A stretch of 64,000 nt of DNA from an uncultured Methanosarcinales archaeon. Its GTDB lineage: Archaea > Nanobdellota > Nanobdellia > Woesearchaeales > DSVV01. The position numbers were made by a program, and so were the translations under genes. Positions within the stretch are counted from its first letter, which is position 1. Every line of letters begins with the position of its first letter. The stretch is taken from positions 128,706-192,705 of the forward strand of contig CAYVNN010000004.1 in NCBI GenBank assembly GCA_964453185.1, written 5' to 3'. This document shows positions 6,896 through 43,454 of this stretch, piece by piece. The notes beneath the pieces are model-generated. The model searched no databases. It was not told the DNA's origin and was given only the letters and a program-made list of their open reading frames with translations.

Positions 6896-7056
6896 TATAA
6901 TAATACCACAGCGGCTCTGGTACAAGGCAAAAAACAATGCTTGTATCGTATATATAATGCCGACTTCATCGACATTATAAGACATTGACTGTGTCAAGTA
7001 TCCTGACATAATATGATATAAAATTTTATAGTGAGCCAAGGCAGTGGTATTATTGC
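6896..7056 (+). repeat. Structured intergenic repeat family copy E1 (composite: also contains the promoter dual-hairpin module)
   Basis: AAUAAUACCAC-CAGCGGCUCUG ... AUAGUGAGCCAAGGCAG-GUGGUAUUAUU. The terminal stems are perfectly complementary. The interior carries tatatataatgccgacttcatcgacattataagac. Confidence 0.6.
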
Positions 7057-7085
7057 TATTGAAAACGCTGTTTGAGGTGAATATT

Positions 7086-8270
7086 ATGAAAAAAAGTTTT
7101 GTTATTATGTTAATAAGTGTATTAGTTTTGGCTATGTTCTTAAGTGGATGTAAAGAAGAAAGTGCTGAAGATTGTTTAGCAGATTGTTTAAAAGAATCAC
7201 AAGATAAGGCAACATGTAATCAACAATGTGGAATGGAGATGCTTGAAAAGCCAACAACACCACAAAAAGAACTTCCTCCCAAAGAAACAACTGAACCTGA
7301 ACCAGAAGTTCCTGAGAAAGTTGAAATAGAATGTAGGATTAATTCAGATTGTGATCAAAAACAAATATGTGAAGAGAGTGAATGTGTAGATGTTGATTGT
7401 AGAGAAAGACCAGATTGTGATGATGGATATTATTGTGAAGAATATGTTTGTATTGAGATTCCAATGCAAGGACCAAGTGATGAAGTGATTGATGATTGGA
7501 CTGATAAGATAATGGATCTTGAAGATTTGTTTGATGATATTTATGAAGATGCAGAAGATCTTTATGATTATTTATCTGATTCAGGTATTGAAGATGATGA
7601 CACATATGAAGATTATGAAGAGGATATTGATGAATTACTTGATGAAATTCAGACATTATTAGATGAGATTGATGAAAAACAAGATAATTTGACTGCAGAA
7701 TTAGGTTATGTTGAAACTTATGCTGATTTAGCAGATGTTAGAGATGAATATAATAGTTATCTGGATGAAATATCTGAATATAGAGAAGATTTTGTTGATG
7801 AAATGACTGATCAATTAGATAATATTGATGAAGCAGTTGGAGATTTAGAATGTACAAGTGATGATGATTGTACTGATGAATTTTGTGTTGATAATGTTTG
7901 TGTTGAATGTGAATCAGATGATGATTGTGATTCTGGATTTAGTTGTGATTCATACAGTTGTGTAGAAGATGCAACTGAAACAAATTGTTCAGATAGCACA
8001 GATGATGATTCAGATGGTTACACTGATTGTGCAGATTCTGATTGTGACGGAGTGGATGACTGTGAATACGATGAAGAGCTAACATGCGATGACAGTGTAG
8101 ATAATGATTCAGATGGTTATACTGATTGTGCAGATGAAGACTGTGATGGAGCAGATGATTGTGAATATGGTACAGAAGCAACATGTGATGACAGTATAGA
8201 CAATGATTCAGATGGAGATACTGATTGTGATGATTCAGACTGTGAGTCAGATACAAATTGTAGCTCATAA
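7086..8270 (+). CDS. Secreted/lipoprotein-like acidic Cys-rich protein with thrombospondin-type-3-like Asp-rich repeats
   Basis: MKKSFVIMLISVLVLAMFLSGC signal with a lipobox-like LSGC. SD gaggtga lies 6 nt upstream. The track start at 7044 overlaps the repeat stem and is probably wrong. Three or more tandem repeats CxDSxDNDSDGYTDCADxDCDGxDDCEY fit a DxDxDG calcium-binding pattern. Confidence 0.65.
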   Translation: MKKSFVIMLISVLVLAMFLSGCKEESAEDCLADCLKESQDKATCNQQCGMEMLEKPTTPQKELPPKETTEPEPEVPEKVEIECRINSDCDQKQICEESECVDVDCRERPDCDDGYYCEEYVCIEIPMQGPSDEVIDDWTDKIMDLEDLFDDIYEDAEDLYDYLSDSGIEDDDTYEDYEEDIDELLDEIQTLLDEIDEKQDNLTAELGYVETYADLADVRDEYNSYLDEISEYREDFVDEMTDQLDNIDEAVGDLECTSDDDCTDEFCVDNVCVECESDDDCDSGFSCDSYSCVEDATETNCSDSTDDDSDGYTDCADSDCDGVDDCEYDEELTCDDSVDNDSDGYTDCADEDCDGADDCEYGTEATCDDSIDNDSDGDTDCDDSDCESDTNCSS

Positions 8271-19405: not shown

Positions 19406-20085
19406 TTGATATATTTATGTGGTGTTTTTCTGGTGGTTAATGTAGGTAAAGTAGAGGATATTGAGTTAAATTGTAAGACTGCTTATTTAGCAGGAGTTAT
19501 TATTGGCGATGGTCATATATCTAATTCAACTAAGTCAAAGTTAGATTTATTAAGGATTATAAAATTGTTATTGATATTGCAGATAAAAATTTTCTTTATT
19601 GTCTTTATAATATGATTAAAACTATGATTTTAACTAAAAGTATTCCAAGACCAACAAAAATTAGAGGAAATCGAAAAGAACGGTGGTGTTTTCAGTTTAG
19701 AAACAAATCATTTTACTTTTTCCTTACTGGATACTTAGGGATAATAGCTGGCTCAAAAAGTTCATTTGTTAGAATGCCTTTGAAAATTAAAAATGCAAAT
19801 ATTAGGTTAAAAAAATATTTCTTAGCAGGATTATTTGATACTGATGGTGGTTTTAGAGGTAATTCTCTTGGATTTACAACTGCAAGTAAAGACTTAAATA
19901 AGGATGTTCATGATTTATTGGATGAATTATTAATCAGACATAGTCTTGATAAATGGGAAAATAAAAAATATGGAAAATTTTATTATGGGATTAGAATTGC
20001 TAAGTCTGAAATAGATAATTTTTTAAATAAGGTGCCTATACAAAACAAAGAAAAGTTGAAAAGAATCCGTTCCAGATTCCCTTGA
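19406..20085 (+). pseudogene. LAGLIDADG homing endonuclease (two LAGLIDADG motifs) interrupted by a frameshift
   Basis: Motif 1 YLAGVIIGDGHI is in frame 2 (19406-19615). Motif 2 FLAGLFDTDGGF is in frame 1 (19612-20085). The frame change lies near the A5 run at about 19584. The stop TGA (20083-85) overlaps position 1-2 of the downstream tRNA. Confidence 0.55.
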
Positions 20086-20294
20086 GGGGGTGCCGGAGTG
20101 GTCAAACGGGACAGATATTTTTATTTCAACTTTTTAGAATAAAATTAGTTTAAGCTTAGGCCACTTCACTGGTGTAAAGAGTTTACAGCTGTGATTGGAA
20201 GACACCTGTTGGCTTAGTGCCTACTAGGGTTCAAACATGCTCACTAGCGTTTGGAGCTTCCAACGTTAGGGCGTTGAAAGTCCCTACCCCCTCA
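20084..20294 (+). tRNA. Intron-containing class II tRNA, probably tRNA-Leu (A73), with a T-loop (59/60-60/61) intron and a large anticodon-region intron
   Basis: Acceptor GAGGGGG/CCCCCUC with A73. Class II D-arm UGCCGGAGUGGUCAAACGG. Variable-arm hairpin GGCUUAGUGCC. T-arm UAGGG-UUCAAA[45-nt intron]U-CCCUA. A T-run follows. Anticodon not resolved by eye; CUUAG loops are present. Confidence 0.5.
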
Positions 20295-31198: not shown

Positions 31199-31386
31199 AC
31201 TTTAGAAAGGATTTATATATGTATATAAAGGTATCGGAGAGTAGTGTGTTAGGATAGAGATATGAGAATGAATGCACTGGGCAATAATGCGAAGCCACGC
31301 CATCTTTTAGGTAAGCTAAAAGCTGGATCAAAATCTATCGTAGTATCTCATATCTTCGATACTACTCAAATTCTAGAAATTAAATA

Positions 31387-31457
31387 TGCACCGGGCGGGA
31401 ATCGAACCCGCGCCTAAGCGTTGGCAACGCCCAATTGTACCATTCAACCACCGGTGC
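31387..31457 (-). tRNA. tRNA-Gly (GCC), intronless
   Basis: Minus strand GCACCGG-UG-GUUG-AAUGGUA-CAAU-U-GGGCG-UUGCCAA-CGCUU-AGGC-GCGGG-UUCGAUU-CCCGC-CCGGUGC-A. All stems pair; 71 nt. Confidence 0.85.
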
Positions 31458-31493
31458 TTAGAACGTGTTTATTATTATTTAATACAAAAATAA

Positions 31494-31653
31494 TGGTGGG
31501 CCCACCCGGAATTACGAAACAGGAGATAACTCCTTATTTTCTCGAACCGGGGATCAATGCCTTTCTTTGTGAAATAAATCACTTGTAAGGGCACTGTCAT
31601 AGCTTCTAGCTGCGAGCAAAGTTTCACTTCGCAAGTCACTAGACCATGAGCCC
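31494..31653 (-). tRNA. tRNA-Val (UAC) with three introns (D-loop ~33 nt, anticodon 37/38 ~21 nt, T-loop ~29 nt) and genomically encoded CCA
   Basis: Acceptor GGGCUCA/UGGGCCC with A73 then CCA. Anticodon arm GUGCC-CUUACAA[intron]-GGCAU. T-arm CCCGG-UUCGA[intron containing GGAGUUAUCUCC]AU-CCGGG. The D-loop is interrupted. Confidence 0.6.
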
Positions 31654-31713
31654 ATTATCTAAATCTTTGAATTAAATGCTGTTTTAAATAGTTTTCTGTT
31701 TAAAAAGTAAGAA

Positions 31714-32322
31714 TTATCGACAACCCCACATTTCTGTATATTCAAATTCACCCCCTCTCATTGTTGTATAGCAGTCAGGTGGAGGACTAAATACAGCAGT
31801 GTCTATTCCTTCTCTACATGCTCTTTCATATTGTTCTCGTGTAATGCTTTTATCATCATAATGATGTCTTAGTGCAATTGCACTTAGAGCTATTGTATCA
31901 GTAGGTATTGTTGGATCTCTTCTTTTTGTAGCATTATAATATGAATCAAAACACTGTCTTGTTTCACTATCAAGAGCATTAACCATTTCTCTGTCTTTTT
32001 CTGGAACTTCACATACCTTCCCTTCTTTTGCATCTTGCATACAAACTAGTGTTTCTAATCTTGGAGTTAGTACTCTTGTTCCTTCTGGAATATTTTTACA
32101 GTCAGTTAAAGCACTATTTTGCATATTAAATTCACATAATTCATCATCATGTAGACTACCCATAATAGTGCCGTATGCAAAATGAGCATAATATAATATG
32201 CTTTTCTTGTATCTTTTTAGTATCTCTTGTACTTGTGGACTTGGTTGTTCTTGTGCATATGTTGGATTAACAGTTAATGGAATGACTAGTGCTGCAATAC
32301 TTAGAATTCTTGAAAATCTCAT
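31714..32322 (-). CDS. Secreted hypothetical protein with signal peptide
   Basis: MRFSRILSIAALVIPLTVNPTYAQEQ signal, then a Cys-containing domain. The track ORF extends to 32385 from an earlier Met. Confidence 0.45.
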   Translation of the reverse strand: MRFSRILSIAALVIPLTVNPTYAQEQPSPQVQEILKRYKKSILYYAHFAYGTIMGSLHDDELCEFNMQNSALTDCKNIPEGTRVLTPRLETLVCMQDAKEGKVCEVPEKDREMVNALDSETRQCFDSYYNATKRRDPTIPTDTIALSAIALRHHYDDKSITREQYERACREGIDTAVFSPPPDCYTTMRGGEFEYTEMWGCR

Positions 32323-32447
32323 ATTATTATATAGTAAGATGTTAGGATATATTAATCTTATGTTTAAATATGGTTTTGTCATCAAAATCTTTATAAATCA
32401 TATATAAACTTCTTTATGTTTAGGACTAAGTGACTTTATTTAATGTT

Positions 32448-32526
32448 TATATAAATAATGCCGACTCACAAGTTCATCGACATTATTAGACATTAAAAAA
32501 CAAATTTAATCGACTAAAGTCGATGA
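32448..32526 (+). promoter_or_regulatory. Promoter-proximal dual-hairpin module, copy M2 (upstream of tRNA-Ile)
   Basis: tatataaataatgccgactcacaagttcatcgacattattagac … aatcgactaaagtcgatg. Both hairpins are present. Confidence 0.45.
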
Positions 32527-32542
32527 AATTGCTTTATTTAAT

Positions 32543-32678
32543 GGGCCTGTAGCTTAGTCTGGTTGGAGCGCTGGTCTTATATGGCTTCGTTTCATACAAG
32601 AAATTGGCTCTGAGTGAGCCAGTGGTCGTGAGAGGTCATCTTTTAGATGATTCACGAATTCAAATCTCATCAGGCCCA
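32543..32678 (+). tRNA. tRNA-Ile (UAU) with two introns (37/38, 35 nt; 53/54, 26 nt)
   Basis: GGGCCUG-UA-GCUU-AGUCUGGUUG-GAGC-G-CUGGU-CUUAUA[35 nt]A-GCCAG-UGGUC-GUGAG[26 nt]UUCAAAU-CUCAU-CAGGCCC-A. All helices pair. An oligo-T follows. Confidence 0.65.
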
Positions 32679-32740
32679 TTATTTTTTTATATTTAGAGAA
32701 AGATTTAAAAAGGACTACAGAAAACAAGATTATACTTAAA

Positions 32741-32897
32741 GCTCCGTTGGTGTAGTCCGGCCAATCATCCAGGATTTTCGTGGCGATGAATCAAAGATTC
32801 ATGAAGTTTTCGCTTTTCGCCGAAAACATCCTGGGACTCGGGTTCGAATATCAAAAAAGGGTTAAAACCTATTGATTTGAAAGTCCCGGACGGAGCA
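32741..32897 (+). tRNA. tRNA-Glu (UUC) with two introns (37/38, ~47 nt; 60/61, 35 nt)
   Basis: GCUCCGU-UG-GUGUAGUCCGGCCAAUCAUC-CAGGA-UUUUCG[intron with CGAAAAC complement]A-UCCUG-GGAC-UCGGG-UUCGAAU[AUCAAAAAAGGGUUAAAACCUAUUGAUUUGAAAGU]CCCGG-ACGGAGC-A. Confidence 0.65.
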
Positions 32898-32922
32898 TTT
32901 ATTATAATATGGTGAAATCATA

Positions 32923-33024
32923 ATGAAAAGAAGTTCAAGACGATGGAAAAAGAAAGGCCAAATGAGATGGAAATGGCAGCGAAAGAGAATGAAGAAGGAA
33001 AAGCGAAGAAGAGCTAAGAAATAA
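32923..33024 (+). CDS. Small basic peptide, ribosomal protein L41e-like (33 aa)
   Basis: MKRSSRRWKKKGQMRWKWQRKRMKKEKRRRAKK. SD ggtga lies 8 nt upstream. Embedded in the tRNA cluster and not listed in the ORF track. Confidence 0.4.
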   Translation: MKRSSRRWKKKGQMRWKWQRKRMKKEKRRRAKK

Positions 33025-33164
33025 ATAGATTAATCTCTCTTTCTATTCTTATTATATTCAGTTAAATTTATATAACAGATGAAATTCTAATTACTTTTAT
33101 GCCAACGTGGCATACTCAAAAAAAGCAATTTTTTTGGTCGCCAAGTTGTCATTCATACATTCAT

Positions 33165-33329
33165 GCCAACGTGGCACAATCTGGTACTGCGCGGATTCTG
33201 TGATGAGCAGAAGCGTAAGCCTTGAGTGTCTAATCACTTAGGATCAGGTTAGCCCGTTTCCTCACGGATATCCCGGTTCAAATAACAAAAAGGTTCAAAC
33301 CTATTGTTTTGAAAGTCCGGGCGTTGGCG
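33165..33329 (+). tRNA. Intron-containing tRNA (isotype unresolved) with a 60/61 intron homologous to that of tRNA-Glu, plus an anticodon-region intron
   Basis: Acceptor GCCAACG/CGUUGGC with G73. D-arm UGGCACAAUCUGGUACUGC. T-arm CCCGG-UUCAAAU[AACAAAAAGGUUCAAACCUAUUGUUUUGAAAGU]CCGGG. An oligo-T follows. Confidence 0.5.
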
Positions 33330-33397
33330 TCATTTTTAAATCAATAGTATTTCTAGAAAAGAAAATTAAGAATATTAGTTAAGAATTAATTTATTCT

Positions 33398-35230
33398 TTA
33401 ACTTAGGATTACTCCATAAGTAACACTATTATCAAATGGATCACAAAATAAATCAACCTCATTACCATCCCATCTAACATAAGGGTCACAGCCGTAAACA
33501 GGATACCCGTTCACTAGATCACTAGAATAAGTAGTACTCGTCCCAACATAAGAGATATACTCAACATCATTAGATATTCTAGACACCTCATTACAAAATC
33601 CTTCAGGTTGATCTTCATGAGAAGCAATTTCTTCTCTAGAGTAACCCATCAATTGATTTCTGTTAAGGTCAACAAAATGAAATGCATTATCGTTAGGGAA
33701 CAACACCGCTAACCAATTATGACCTGATGTTCCATCAGATGAAACAACTGACCATACACTATCAGAATCAAAACCCATTTTCCTTAACAAAGTTAAACCT
33801 GTCATACTTTTACCGATACAATTACCTGATTCCATAATATTAGACATTACATGAACTGGTTGAGGAGACATCCAACAATAATTTCTATCCATATTATAAT
33901 CGTTAGTCCAGCCAGTACCACTGAAACAATCATTAATACCATTAAATAGATAACCTTCATAATCATTACTTTCCCTTACATCAGAACTATAGCAAGGGGG
34001 TGCTTTACATTCTAAACCTTCAGTGTAAGGACTGTTAGCACCTTCAGTACCACAATAACCATCAGTTTGACAATCATCTCCACCATAGTCATAACGCAAA
34101 TACCTTCTTTCAGGGACAGGGTTAGAACTAGCTTTAATATAATATAATCCACGGCAAGCTGTTAAGTCACCACCATAATAATTGTCAGCTTCATCTCTTG
34201 CCCAATCACAAGTTGAATAATCAGATGATTCGTGGTCATTATTAAACAAGCCTAAACAACAATCAGACGCTTCTTCAACAATGTAATCTAACTCTTCAGA
34301 ACAGATTTCCATAACGTCGCATTTTGGTGCACAGACATCATTACCAAAATAGATGAATGTACCATCACCATTTGGCCAAACATCAGTGCAACCAGAATCT
34401 GAAGGGGCATATTTGCTGTTAGTGTTACAAACAGTATTACACGGTGCACAAGAACCACCACAATCAATCCCTTCTTCATCTTGGTTCTGGATATTATCTG
34501 AACAAGATTCAAAGTCATTTATACTTAAACAATCACAGTTAGGGTCACATCTTAATCCTGATCCACAGATATCACCTGGTTGTTTATCATCACATTTATT
34601 ATCAGCACCACAATCTTCAGAACAGACTGGCTGGCCAACCATTCCATCGACACGATCTTTTATCATTGCAGTGTCCCAAATACAAGTTGAAACAGGAGAA
34701 TCAATTGAACTAGTAGTTTTAGCACCAGACATACTAGCATCTATTATGTCAAGGTACCATTGTCTTCCACCATCATCATCATAATAAACTAATCCAACTG
34801 AATCATAATTATTATGATTGATGTTTAATGTAACTTTTGAACCAATCACTTCAAAGGGGATATATTGAAATATCTCTCCATCTTTTACCAAAACAAAGTT
34901 AGATTCATCCCTATATGTTTTATAATTATCAAACTCAGAACTAGATAAACTGTGCTGGACATAATTACTTAATACTGTACTTTCATAACTAAGATCGCCT
35001 GTTGCAAGTTTTTTTTCTATATCATAATTATCGCTAGTTTCATGATCCATATCTGTTGCTAAATTATCATCAAAATCTTCCAAGCCAAACCCATCTACTT
35101 GGACTGATGTAGCTTCGCCAGCGATGTTTGAATCAGCATCAAAAAAGAATAAAAATAAAGTGCCAATTATCAGAACTGATATTACTAAAATAATTGAATA
35201 ATATTTTTTTAAAGGGGATCTATCTATCAT
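33398..35230 (-). CDS. Secreted transglutaminase-like (cysteine protease fold) Cys-rich protein
   Basis: N-terminal TM/signal. Core ESGNCIGKSMTGLTLLRKMGF…GHNWLAVLF…D fits the transglutaminase-like Cys-His-Asp triad pattern (GxCxxfA…R..GIP…HAW). CSDNIQNQDEEGIDCGGSCAPC is shared with the 10303 protein. Confidence 0.6.
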   Translation of the reverse strand: MIDRSPLKKYYSIILVISVLIIGTLFLFFFDADSNIAGEATSVQVDGFGLEDFDDNLATDMDHETSDNYDIEKKLATGDLSYESTVLSNYVQHSLSSSEFDNYKTYRDESNFVLVKDGEIFQYIPFEVIGSKVTLNINHNNYDSVGLVYYDDDGGRQWYLDIIDASMSGAKTTSSIDSPVSTCIWDTAMIKDRVDGMVGQPVCSEDCGADNKCDDKQPGDICGSGLRCDPNCDCLSINDFESCSDNIQNQDEEGIDCGGSCAPCNTVCNTNSKYAPSDSGCTDVWPNGDGTFIYFGNDVCAPKCDVMEICSEELDYIVEEASDCCLGLFNNDHESSDYSTCDWARDEADNYYGGDLTACRGLYYIKASSNPVPERRYLRYDYGGDDCQTDGYCGTEGANSPYTEGLECKAPPCYSSDVRESNDYEGYLFNGINDCFSGTGWTNDYNMDRNYCWMSPQPVHVMSNIMESGNCIGKSMTGLTLLRKMGFDSDSVWSVVSSDGTSGHNWLAVLFPNDNAFHFVDLNRNQLMGYSREEIASHEDQPEGFCNEVSRISNDVEYISYVGTSTTYSSDLVNGYPVYGCDPYVRWDGNEVDLFCDPFDNSVTYGVILS

Positions 35231-43192: not shown

Positions 43193-43299
43193 GCCCTGGT
43201 AGTGTAGCTCGGCCTATCATGAAGCCCTGTCGAGGCTTCGACTCGGGTTCGAATAAGGATTTCCTGTGTGGATATCCTCTGAAAGTCCCGGCCAGGGCG
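43193..43299 (+). tRNA. tRNA-Asp (GUC) with a single 32-nt intron at 60/61 (T-loop)
   Basis: GCCCUGG-UA-GUGUAGCUCGGCCUAUCAUG-AAGCC-CUGUCGA-GGCUU-CGAC-UCGGG-UUCGAAU[AAGGAUUUCCUGUGUGGAUAUCCUCUGAAAGU]CCCGG-CCAGGGC-G. Confidence 0.7.
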
Positions 43300-43313: not shown

Positions 43314-43454
43314 GGGCCGTTAGCTCAGCCTGGTACTTTGTAAGTATTCAAAGCTTTATCGGCAGGAAAGAGCACTGCACTTTTAACAAAGACTGGAACT
43401 TTCAACCAGTTGAAAGTGATGCAGGTGTCGCGAGTTCGAATCTCGTACGGCCCA
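43314..43454 (+). tRNA. tRNA-Lys (UUU) with two introns (D-loop ~34 nt; anticodon 37/38 33 nt)
   Basis: GGGCCGU-UA-GCUC-AGCCUGGUA[intron]-GAGC-A-CUGCA-CUUUUA[ACAAAGACUGGAACUUUCAACCAGUUGAAAGUG]A-UGCAG-GUGUC-GCGAG-UUCGAAU-CUCGU-ACGGCCC-A. Confidence 0.65.

Follow-up and report, generated by a model that had tools for sequence, protein, structure and literature searches.

The 64,000-nucleotide (nt) stretch of contig CAYVNN010000004.1 that was analyzed here (the window; G+C content ~30%) contains eight tRNA genes, seven of which are interrupted by 16 predicted introns of the bulge-helix-bulge (BHB) type with a combined length of 534 nt. The tRNA-Leu, tRNA-Val and tRNA-Ser genes hold three introns each (Table 1), and two of the T-loop introns, in the neighboring tRNA-Glu and tRNA-Ser genes, are the main subject of this study together with the sequence in which several of the introns end. 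Judged from the RpoB subunit encoded in the window, which is identical to proteins on metagenome contigs and 72–81% identical to proteins named Candidatus Woesearchaeota or Nanoarchaeota in their sources, the host lineage is Woesearchaeota (DPANN). The introns were mapped by a BHB scan, a splice-combination search, a search for T-loop introns that was free of any assumed intron end, and comparison with orthologues in related loci (80 were searched; L006, L007, L013, L079 and other L-numbers denote the loci compared). Before splicing, ARAGORN detects one of the eight genes and Rfam three, and the genes for tRNA-Glu, tRNA-Ser, tRNA-Asp, tRNA-Leu and tRNA-Val (five of eight) escape both programs. 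After in-silico splicing, all seven intron-bearing genes gave tRNAs with cloverleafs that ARAGORN accepted cleanly and with the expected anticodons.

The original prediction, made from the letters of the window, had reported that five introns end in (U/C)UGAAAGU. All five were found at 3' splice junctions, where YTGAAAGT occupies positions 20274-20281 (Leu), 32877-32884 (Glu), 33309-33316 (Ser), 43279-43286 (Asp, where it reads CTGAAAGT) and 43410-43417 (Lys). Over the whole window the octamer TTGAAAGT is found eight times against 8.0 expected and is not enriched, whereas the five copies at the exact 3' junction compare with an expectation of ~0.001 (computed with 17 introns, the true count in the window being 16). 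This excess at the junction is structural. In a BHB, intron positions -6 to -3 pair with the four exon nt lying just before the 5' bulge, and the 3' bulge consists of the last two intron nt and the first nt of the 3' exon. Minimum free energy (MFE) folds of the Leu, Glu and Ser T-arm regions place UGAA opposite T-loop positions 54-57 and leave AGU as a 3-nt bulge, the helix of Glu and Ser being the same as that of Leu but longer by one pair. Because the exon partner is U54-U55-C56-R57, an intron at this site must read Y-G-A-A at -6 to -3, and what had been described as a conserved UUGAAAGU motif is mostly the sequence required to pair with the T-loop for splicing.

The insertion site had been given as 60/61. 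In the Leu gene, the T-loop copy on the 5' side of the intron reads UUCAAAC, and in the L006 and L007 Asp genes it reads UUCAAAA. UUCAAAU can be completed only by the U that follows AG (AA in L006); the motif therefore ends in exon U60, and the site is 59/60. The fifth T-loop intron, that of tRNA-Val on the minus strand, lacks the motif, and its CGUA-AU end pairs with UUCG with one U-U mismatch. Among the introns outside the T-loop, the motif is found in Lys alone. There, C32-U33-U34-U35 in the UUU anticodon loop are the pairing partners of the octamer's AAAG, the bulge consists of UG and A38, and the inner helix is closed by UUG together with CAA from the 5' end of the intron (the BHB scan gives a CUUU/AAAG central helix, UAA and UGA as bulges and an outer helix of 5 bp). 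The L006 and L007 orthologues retain the ends of this intron, ACAAA...UUGAAAGUR (UUGAAAGUA), with interior lengths of 15, 27 and 33 nt. The Lys octamer is a coincidence of constraints. Other 37/38 introns, as read from their letters, end in the complement of their own anticodon loop, e.g., UGAG-UG in Ile and GAAA-AC in Glu, where by inspection GAAA at -6 to -3 can pair with U32-U35. The canonical 37/38 introns (Lys, Ile, Glu, Ser and Leu) have the same architecture as those at 59/60, in that four exon nt pair with -6 to -3 and each splice site lies in a 3-nt bulge; their exon partner (positions 32-35), however, varies from tRNA to tRNA and makes the intron host-specific, while the partner at 59/60 is the universal T-loop.

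The pairing at 59/60 was evaluated over a wider set of genomes with the pattern T-stem + UUCRAR + N(10-109) + Y + complementary T-stem + acceptor match, in which the intron end was left free. This motif-free search yielded 17 distinct 59/60 introns in 13 Woesearchaeota assemblies (that of the window and 12 others), the hosts being Ala(UGC), Ala(GGC), Tyr, Gln, Val and Asp in addition to Glu, Ser and Leu of the window; the L033, L044 and L077 genes were read as Ala(UGC) from their anticodon arms, ARAGORN mislabeling them while other introns remain in place. In the 17 introns, 94% of the cells of the central helix (54-57 with -6 to -3) are paired, and the 57:-6 pair is A-U in nine, G-C in three and G-U in two introns and unpaired in three. 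Over the central helix and the T-stem helix together, of which only the former counts as evidence given that the T-stem was imposed by the search, 97% of the cells are paired compared to 71 and 59% when the register is slid by one column, and none of 500 shuffles reached the observed covariation score. The two bulge positions read AG in 12 of the 17 introns, while Val, L023, L033 and L083 have other letters there.

The second claim that had been made, that the 59/60 introns of tRNA-Glu and of the gene at 33165 are about 85% identical, was confirmed for the sequences quoted. The two introns share 30 identities over 35 alignment columns (86%; 30 of 33 without gaps), and their alignment score of 49 compares with a shuffle mean of 1.2 (standard deviation 5.3; z ~9; reached by none of 500 shuffles). 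Further analyses revealed that this is the top and only strongly similar pair among the 120 pairs that the 16 introns form, the next being the Val and Lys D-loop introns (z = 4.0), and that the interiors without the constrained ends still match at 22 of 25 positions (none of 5000 shuffles). A repeat search of the window also recovered the pair (85% over 40 nt). The exon flanks of the two introns match at only 11 of 20 and 10 of 20 positions, and a gapped alignment of the mature tRNAs gives 54% identity. The homology ends at the intron borders, which speaks strongly against a duplicated tRNA segment and agrees with the movement of introns between genes that has been proposed for Thermoproteales (PMC4090602, PMC4033280). 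This homology of the intron alone is best explained by copying between genes. The divergence amounts to three substitutions and an indel; as read from the alignment, two of the substitutions exchange the U:A found in the Glu intron helix (AUCAA/UUGAU) for the A:U found in that of Ser (AACAA/UUGUU), and the third sits in the apical loop. The two genes are 268 nt apart and have GGUUCRAA and UCCSGG in common around the 59/60 site. Given this spacing and the common site sequence, RNA-mediated transposition is no more plausible than short-range conversion or template switching.

We also noticed that the apical hairpin shared by the two introns resembles a T-arm (Ser 33292-33301, GGUUCAAACC, compared with the exon sequence GGUUCAAAUCC; Glu 32859-32869, GGGUUAAAACC, compared with the exon sequence GGGUUCGAAUCC). 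This may hint at an origin of the intron by T-arm duplication, or it may be due to chance.

Identification of the gene at 33165 depends on how many introns are removed. With three introns removed, it is identified as tRNA-Ser(UGA): the spliced product is a class II tRNA with the anticodon arm CGGGC-CUUGAGA-GCCCG, a 15-nt variable arm and discriminator G, and at each junction a 4-bp central helix lies between bulges. Consistent with this assignment, the tRNA-Ser(CGA) gene of L013 shares its acceptor stem and T-arm and resembles it in the variable arm. When only the T-loop intron was removed, ARAGORN called the gene His(GUG), Thr(UGU) or Leu(UAG); these candidates were ruled out by anticodon loops without U33 and by an overlong extra arm that remained, and Ser(UGA) is preferred because the three-intron solution has a BHB at every junction. 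For the tRNA-Leu gene, the automatic search over BHB combinations returned only wrong isotypes, because its 37/38 junction has three of the four central pairs, and the gene was solved through the L079 orthologue. At the 5' edge of the tRNA-Ser gene, a 26-nt direct repeat (33092-33117 and 33156-33181; 85% identical, 64-nt spacing; ATGCCAACGTGGCA) spans ~9 nt of 5' leader and the first 13-14 nt of the tRNA; its upstream copy is a truncated 5' edge of the gene, just after a TATA-like AAATTTATATAA at ~33066.

Table 1. tRNA genes of the window and their predicted introns (position in the tRNA given for each intron).
Feature	Coordinates	Strand	Remarks
tRNA-Leu(UAG)	20084-20294	+	Introns 30/31, 37/38, 59/60; spliced form Leu(tag) by ARAGORN
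Leu 30/31 intron	20115-20153	+	Exon borders from comparison with L079 orthologue
Leu 37/38 intron	20161-20203	+	Exon borders from comparison with L079 orthologue
Leu 59/60 intron	20236-20280	+	45 nt; ends UUGAAAG/U
tRNA-Gly(GCC)	31387-31457	-	No intron
tRNA-Val(UAC)	31498-31653	-	Introns D-loop, 37/38, 59/60; from motif-free T-loop search; spliced form Val(tac)
Val 59/60 intron	31511-31540	-	Without motif; ends CGUAAU
Val 37/38 intron	31563-31583	-	
Val D-loop intron	31604-31636	-	
tRNA-Ile(UAU)	32543-32678	+	Introns 37/38, 53/54; Rfam match with inserts; spliced form Ile(tat)
Ile 37/38 intron	32582-32616	+	
Ile 53/54 intron	32633-32658	+	
tRNA-Glu(UUC)	32741-32897	+	Introns 37/38, 59/60; spliced 75-nt tRNA Glu(ttc) by ARAGORN
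Glu 37/38 intron	32781-32827	+	47 nt; removal required for cloverleaf
Glu 59/60 intron	32849-32883	+	35 nt; homologous to Ser 59/60 intron
tRNA-Ser(UGA)	33165-33329	+	Introns 29/30, 37/38, 59/60; BHB-guided splice search gives Ser(tga)
Ser 29/30 intron	33195-33218	+	24 nt; in 5' strand of anticodon stem; removal needed for Ser(tga)
Ser 37/38 intron	33227-33250	+	24 nt; BHB scan: central CUUG/CAGG, inner helix 4 bp; removal needed for Ser(tga)
Ser 59/60 intron	33283-33315	+	33 nt; homologous to Glu 59/60 intron
tRNA-Asp(GUC)	43193-43299	+	Intron 59/60; spliced form Asp(gtc)
Asp 59/60 intron	43254-43285	+	32 nt; ends CUGAAAG/U; BHB scan
tRNA-Lys(UUU)	43314-43454	+	Introns D-loop, 37/38; Rfam match with two inserts; spliced form Lys(ttt)
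Lys D-loop intron	43335-43368	+	Strict BHB by scan
Lys 37/38 intron	43386-43418	+	Ends UUGAAAGUG

A strict 3-4-3 BHB was obtained for the Leu 59/60 intron by folding, its MFE structure being the textbook form (UUCA/UGAA with bulges AAC and AGU), and by scan for the 59/60 introns of Ser (TTCA/TGAA in the center, AAT and AGT as bulges and a 5-bp outer helix) and Asp, both Lys introns and the Ser 37/38 intron. In the fold of the Glu 59/60 junction, UUUGA pairs with T-loop positions 54-58; the fold also contains the T-stem, a 5' bulge of 2 nt and the 3-nt AGU 3' bulge. At the Ser 29/30 junction, a central helix GCGC/GCGU and a 6-bp inner helix UUCUGU/GCAGAA were found by hand, and both are present in the MFE fold.

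Taken together, the introns are very probably ordinary archaeal tRNA introns spliced by protein at BHB structures, in a Woesearchaeota genome with an unusual wealth of introns, with a 3' motif that arises from pairing with the T-loop, with Glu and Ser introns that are true homologues produced by copying, and with a coincidental octamer in Lys. The 59/60 introns of Leu, Glu, Ser and Asp, four of the five T-loop introns, end in YUGAAAG/U because, on this interpretation, a BHB at this site allows only the following parts: Y-G-A-A at -6 to -3 paired with U54-U55-C56-R57, two bulged nt (usually AG) and exon U60. Such an intron could be used without tailoring to the host tRNA, because its exon partner, the T-loop, hardly varies among tRNAs; a universal partner would explain why 59/60 is a hot spot and agrees with the finding of such introns in at least nine tRNA isotypes across Woesearchaeota. 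From either the tRNA-Glu or the tRNA-Ser gene, the intron would have been copied into the neighboring gene by transposition or short-range gene conversion, and both copies would have been kept spliceable, as the one compensatory base-pair change in the intron helix suggests. Excision would be carried out by a broad-specificity EndA.

Several observations weigh against this interpretation. The pairing leaves the AG of the bulge, present in most of the 59/60 introns, unexplained. The window has one clearly homologous pair only, the spacing of its hosts fits local conversion as well as transposition, and no third intron of the Glu/Ser type was found in the window or in the 80 related loci. A metagenome scan with CCTATTGNTTTGAAAGT, a pattern too short for such a collection, gave matches of which those listed and inspected were all chance occurrences that lay in coding or unrelated DNA, away from any tRNA. 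The Glu and Ser 59/60 folds are a variant with a 2-nt 5' bulge and 5 bp rather than a strict 3-4-3 BHB, and in the MFE fold of Asp the central helix of 4 bp stays open even though its pairs could form. No EndA gene was found among the 18 open reading frames (ORFs) of the window that were scanned, and splicing is deduced here from the DNA sequence.

The unexplained AG favors descent of all 59/60 introns from one founder, in which case the YUGAAAGU end, AG bulge included, would be retained ancestry and not the product of constraint alone. Pairing does not demand AG, 59/60 introns occur in many isotypes and one pair is demonstrably homologous. Beyond the constrained end, however, interiors other than those of Glu and Ser are dissimilar (z at most 2.9), Val, L023, L033 and L083 depart from AG in the bulge, and the orthologous Asp introns of three genomes are wholly different inside, such that ancestry is unreadable from these sequences. 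We therefore consider a single founder unlikely. The transposition or duplication that the original prediction had read from shared intron sequence is retained for the Glu/Ser pair, whose homology is limited to the intron and spans unrelated hosts, but the motif does not serve as a sign of common descent of the five introns. The other possibility raised there, a recognition or folding element, is likewise upheld in part: the motif acts as a folding element in splicing, being complementary to T-loop positions 54-57 rather than a mimic of the T-loop. Sequence-specific imitation of the T-loop, to be recognized by the splicing endonuclease or by some other factor that binds the T-loop, might be suggested by the likeness, by eye, of UUGAAAGU to UUCGAAU (UUCGAA being palindromic) and by the T-arm-like hairpin GGUUCAAACC of the Glu/Ser family. 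The motif is, however, paired with the T-loop in the folds, its position -6 covaries with position 57, the Val T-loop intron does without it, and it is absent from introns outside the T-loop except in Lys, where pairing with CUUU accounts for it; imitation of the T-loop is very improbable.

It has also to be considered that the Glu/Ser similarity arose when a 3' segment of a tRNA, comprising T-arm and intron, was duplicated, and not by movement of the intron alone. The two genes are adjacent at 268 nt, and the 26-nt direct repeat indicates that small duplications did occur at the 5' edge of the tRNA-Ser gene. Against such an event, identity falls from 30 of 33 positions in the intron to about half in the exon flanks, the T-stems differ (UCGGG/CCCGG and CCCGG/CCGGG), the acceptor strands are unrelated, and tRNA-Glu belongs to class I whereas tRNA-Ser belongs to class II. 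Duplication of a 3' segment is scarcely tenable, and copying of the intron itself remains the preferred explanation.

Comparison with related loci bears on when these introns were gained. The closest relatives, L006 and L007, encode Kae1 proteins 84 and 77% identical to Kae1 of the window. Both have the Asp intron at the same 59/60 site, with unrelated interiors and the ends AUGAAAA/U and AUGAAAG/U, and both lack the Lys D-loop intron. The tRNA-Leu(UAG) gene of L079 has only a 37/38 intron, compared to three introns in the window, and the tRNA-Ser(CGA) gene of L013 has a 37/38 intron only, without a T-loop intron. For neither tRNA-Glu(UUC) nor tRNA-Ser(UGA) did the related loci searched yield an orthologue, and in the synteny search around Kae1 for these orthologues L006 and L007 carried the Asp and Lys genes only. 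The same-species contigs L206 and L207 are identical to the window over 31300-33450, i.e., without population polymorphism. The lineage of the window is more intron-rich than the relatives sampled, which fits recent gain, with loss elsewhere also possible. A bolder reading is a recent burst of tRNA intron gain, partly by way of a host-independent 59/60 "cassette" that would need only the universal T-loop, the Glu/Ser family perhaps being derived from T-arm duplication. The presence of introns in seven of eight genes of the window, and of one intron in relatives where the window has two or three, can be cited for it. We regard such a burst as doubtful; if it took place, it would provide a concrete model for the birth and spread of new BHB introns in DPANN archaea.

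The 59/60 position and the sharing of introns between tRNAs have both been published. ARMAN-2 (Ca. Micrarchaeum) has BHB introns at 59/60 and 53/54 (PMC3239211), and it resembles the genome of the window in being a DPANN archaeon with introns at both positions, strict or relaxed BHB structures and many disrupted tRNA genes. The window, however, derives from a phylum other than that of ARMAN-2, i.e., Woesearchaeota, and the consulted text of the ARMAN-2 report describes no intron homology between different tRNAs. DPANN lineages are reported to have a broad-specificity alpha4 EndA with the L3 loop, which is associated with disrupted tRNA genes, and in lineages such as that of the window this alpha4 form and not epsilon2 would be expected according to the same paper (PMC5829648). 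In Thermoproteales, near-identical introns occur in different tRNAs with up to three per gene and have been interpreted as the result of transposition (PMC4090602, PMC4033280). The window is alike in having near-identical introns across amino-acid families and up to three introns per gene, and recent gain, indicated by relatives in Thermoproteales, may apply here as well. Thermoproteales, however, are members of TACK with many intron families according to these sources, whereas the window, of DPANN origin, has one clear pair and a weak candidate in the Val/Lys D-loop introns; its two hosts are, unlike those in Thermoproteales, immediate neighbors, which makes local conversion a serious alternative to transposition.

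Our literature search found no report of shared tRNA introns in Woesearchaeota. The main evidence for tRNA intron gain in archaea has so far come from one crenarchaeal order, and the Glu/Ser pair extends intron-only homology between unrelated, adjacent tRNA genes to a distant DPANN lineage. With its three substitutions and an indel, the pair is young and suited to the study of the copying mechanism, and the universal T-loop as exon partner suggests why 59/60 is a recurrent insertion hot spot. The findings are of moderate interest to specialists, and their practical value lies in a rule by which tRNA genes overlooked by standard tools can be detected: T-stem + UUCRAA + N(x) + YGAA NN + U + T-stem.

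Other intron pairs were also observed. The D-loop introns of Val and Lys lie at about the same position and, in addition to their weak similarity, both begin with ACUU.G..AAGU and end in GAA; on these sequence features they are a possible second, older homologous pair. On the plus strand of L085, two genes for tRNA-Val isoacceptors (7049-7185 and 8026-8180) flank an ORF and have a 49-nt 59/60 intron in common (45 of 49 positions identical), an instance of intron sharing between paralogous isoacceptors; their anticodons were read as CAC and GAC, ARAGORN calling the CAC gene only. Orthologous tRNA-Tyr genes on the minus strands of L056 and L062 (3720-3951 and 9487-9700 of the reverse complements) have 87-89-nt 59/60 introns with the conserved blocks UAGGAG..UUUCGCUCAGAA and GUGAUG.UGCGAAA, which may specify a small RNA, for example a C/D-box guide.

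Additional features were noticed in and around the tRNA genes. A 157-amino-acid (aa), free-standing ORF resembling LAGLIDADG homing endonucleases (19612-20085, plus strand; Pfam LAGLIDADG_3, E = 1e-11) has a stop codon that reaches two bases into the tRNA-Leu gene with its three introns, and a connection with intron mobility is speculation. The tRNA-Ile gene has the anticodon UAU. In archaea, AUA is usually decoded by a CAU and not a UAU anticodon, and tRNA-Ile of the UAU type is known from Nanoarchaeum and Korarchaeum. Between the tRNA-Glu and tRNA-Ser genes lies a very basic ORF of 33 codons (32923-33024, plus strand; MKRSSRRWKKKGQMRWKWQRKRMKKEKRRRAKK), which we take to be similar to ribosomal protein L41e; searches with Pfam and NCBIfam profiles gave no match for it, and an exact-protein look-up of a neighboring 610-aa protein gave none either. 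In L025, L048, L059 and L063, a second copy of the 3' T-stem and acceptor strand (e.g., CCCAGCGTCCCC) follows ~60-100 nt downstream of a complete tRNA, which resembles the attachment-site duplications left by integrated elements.

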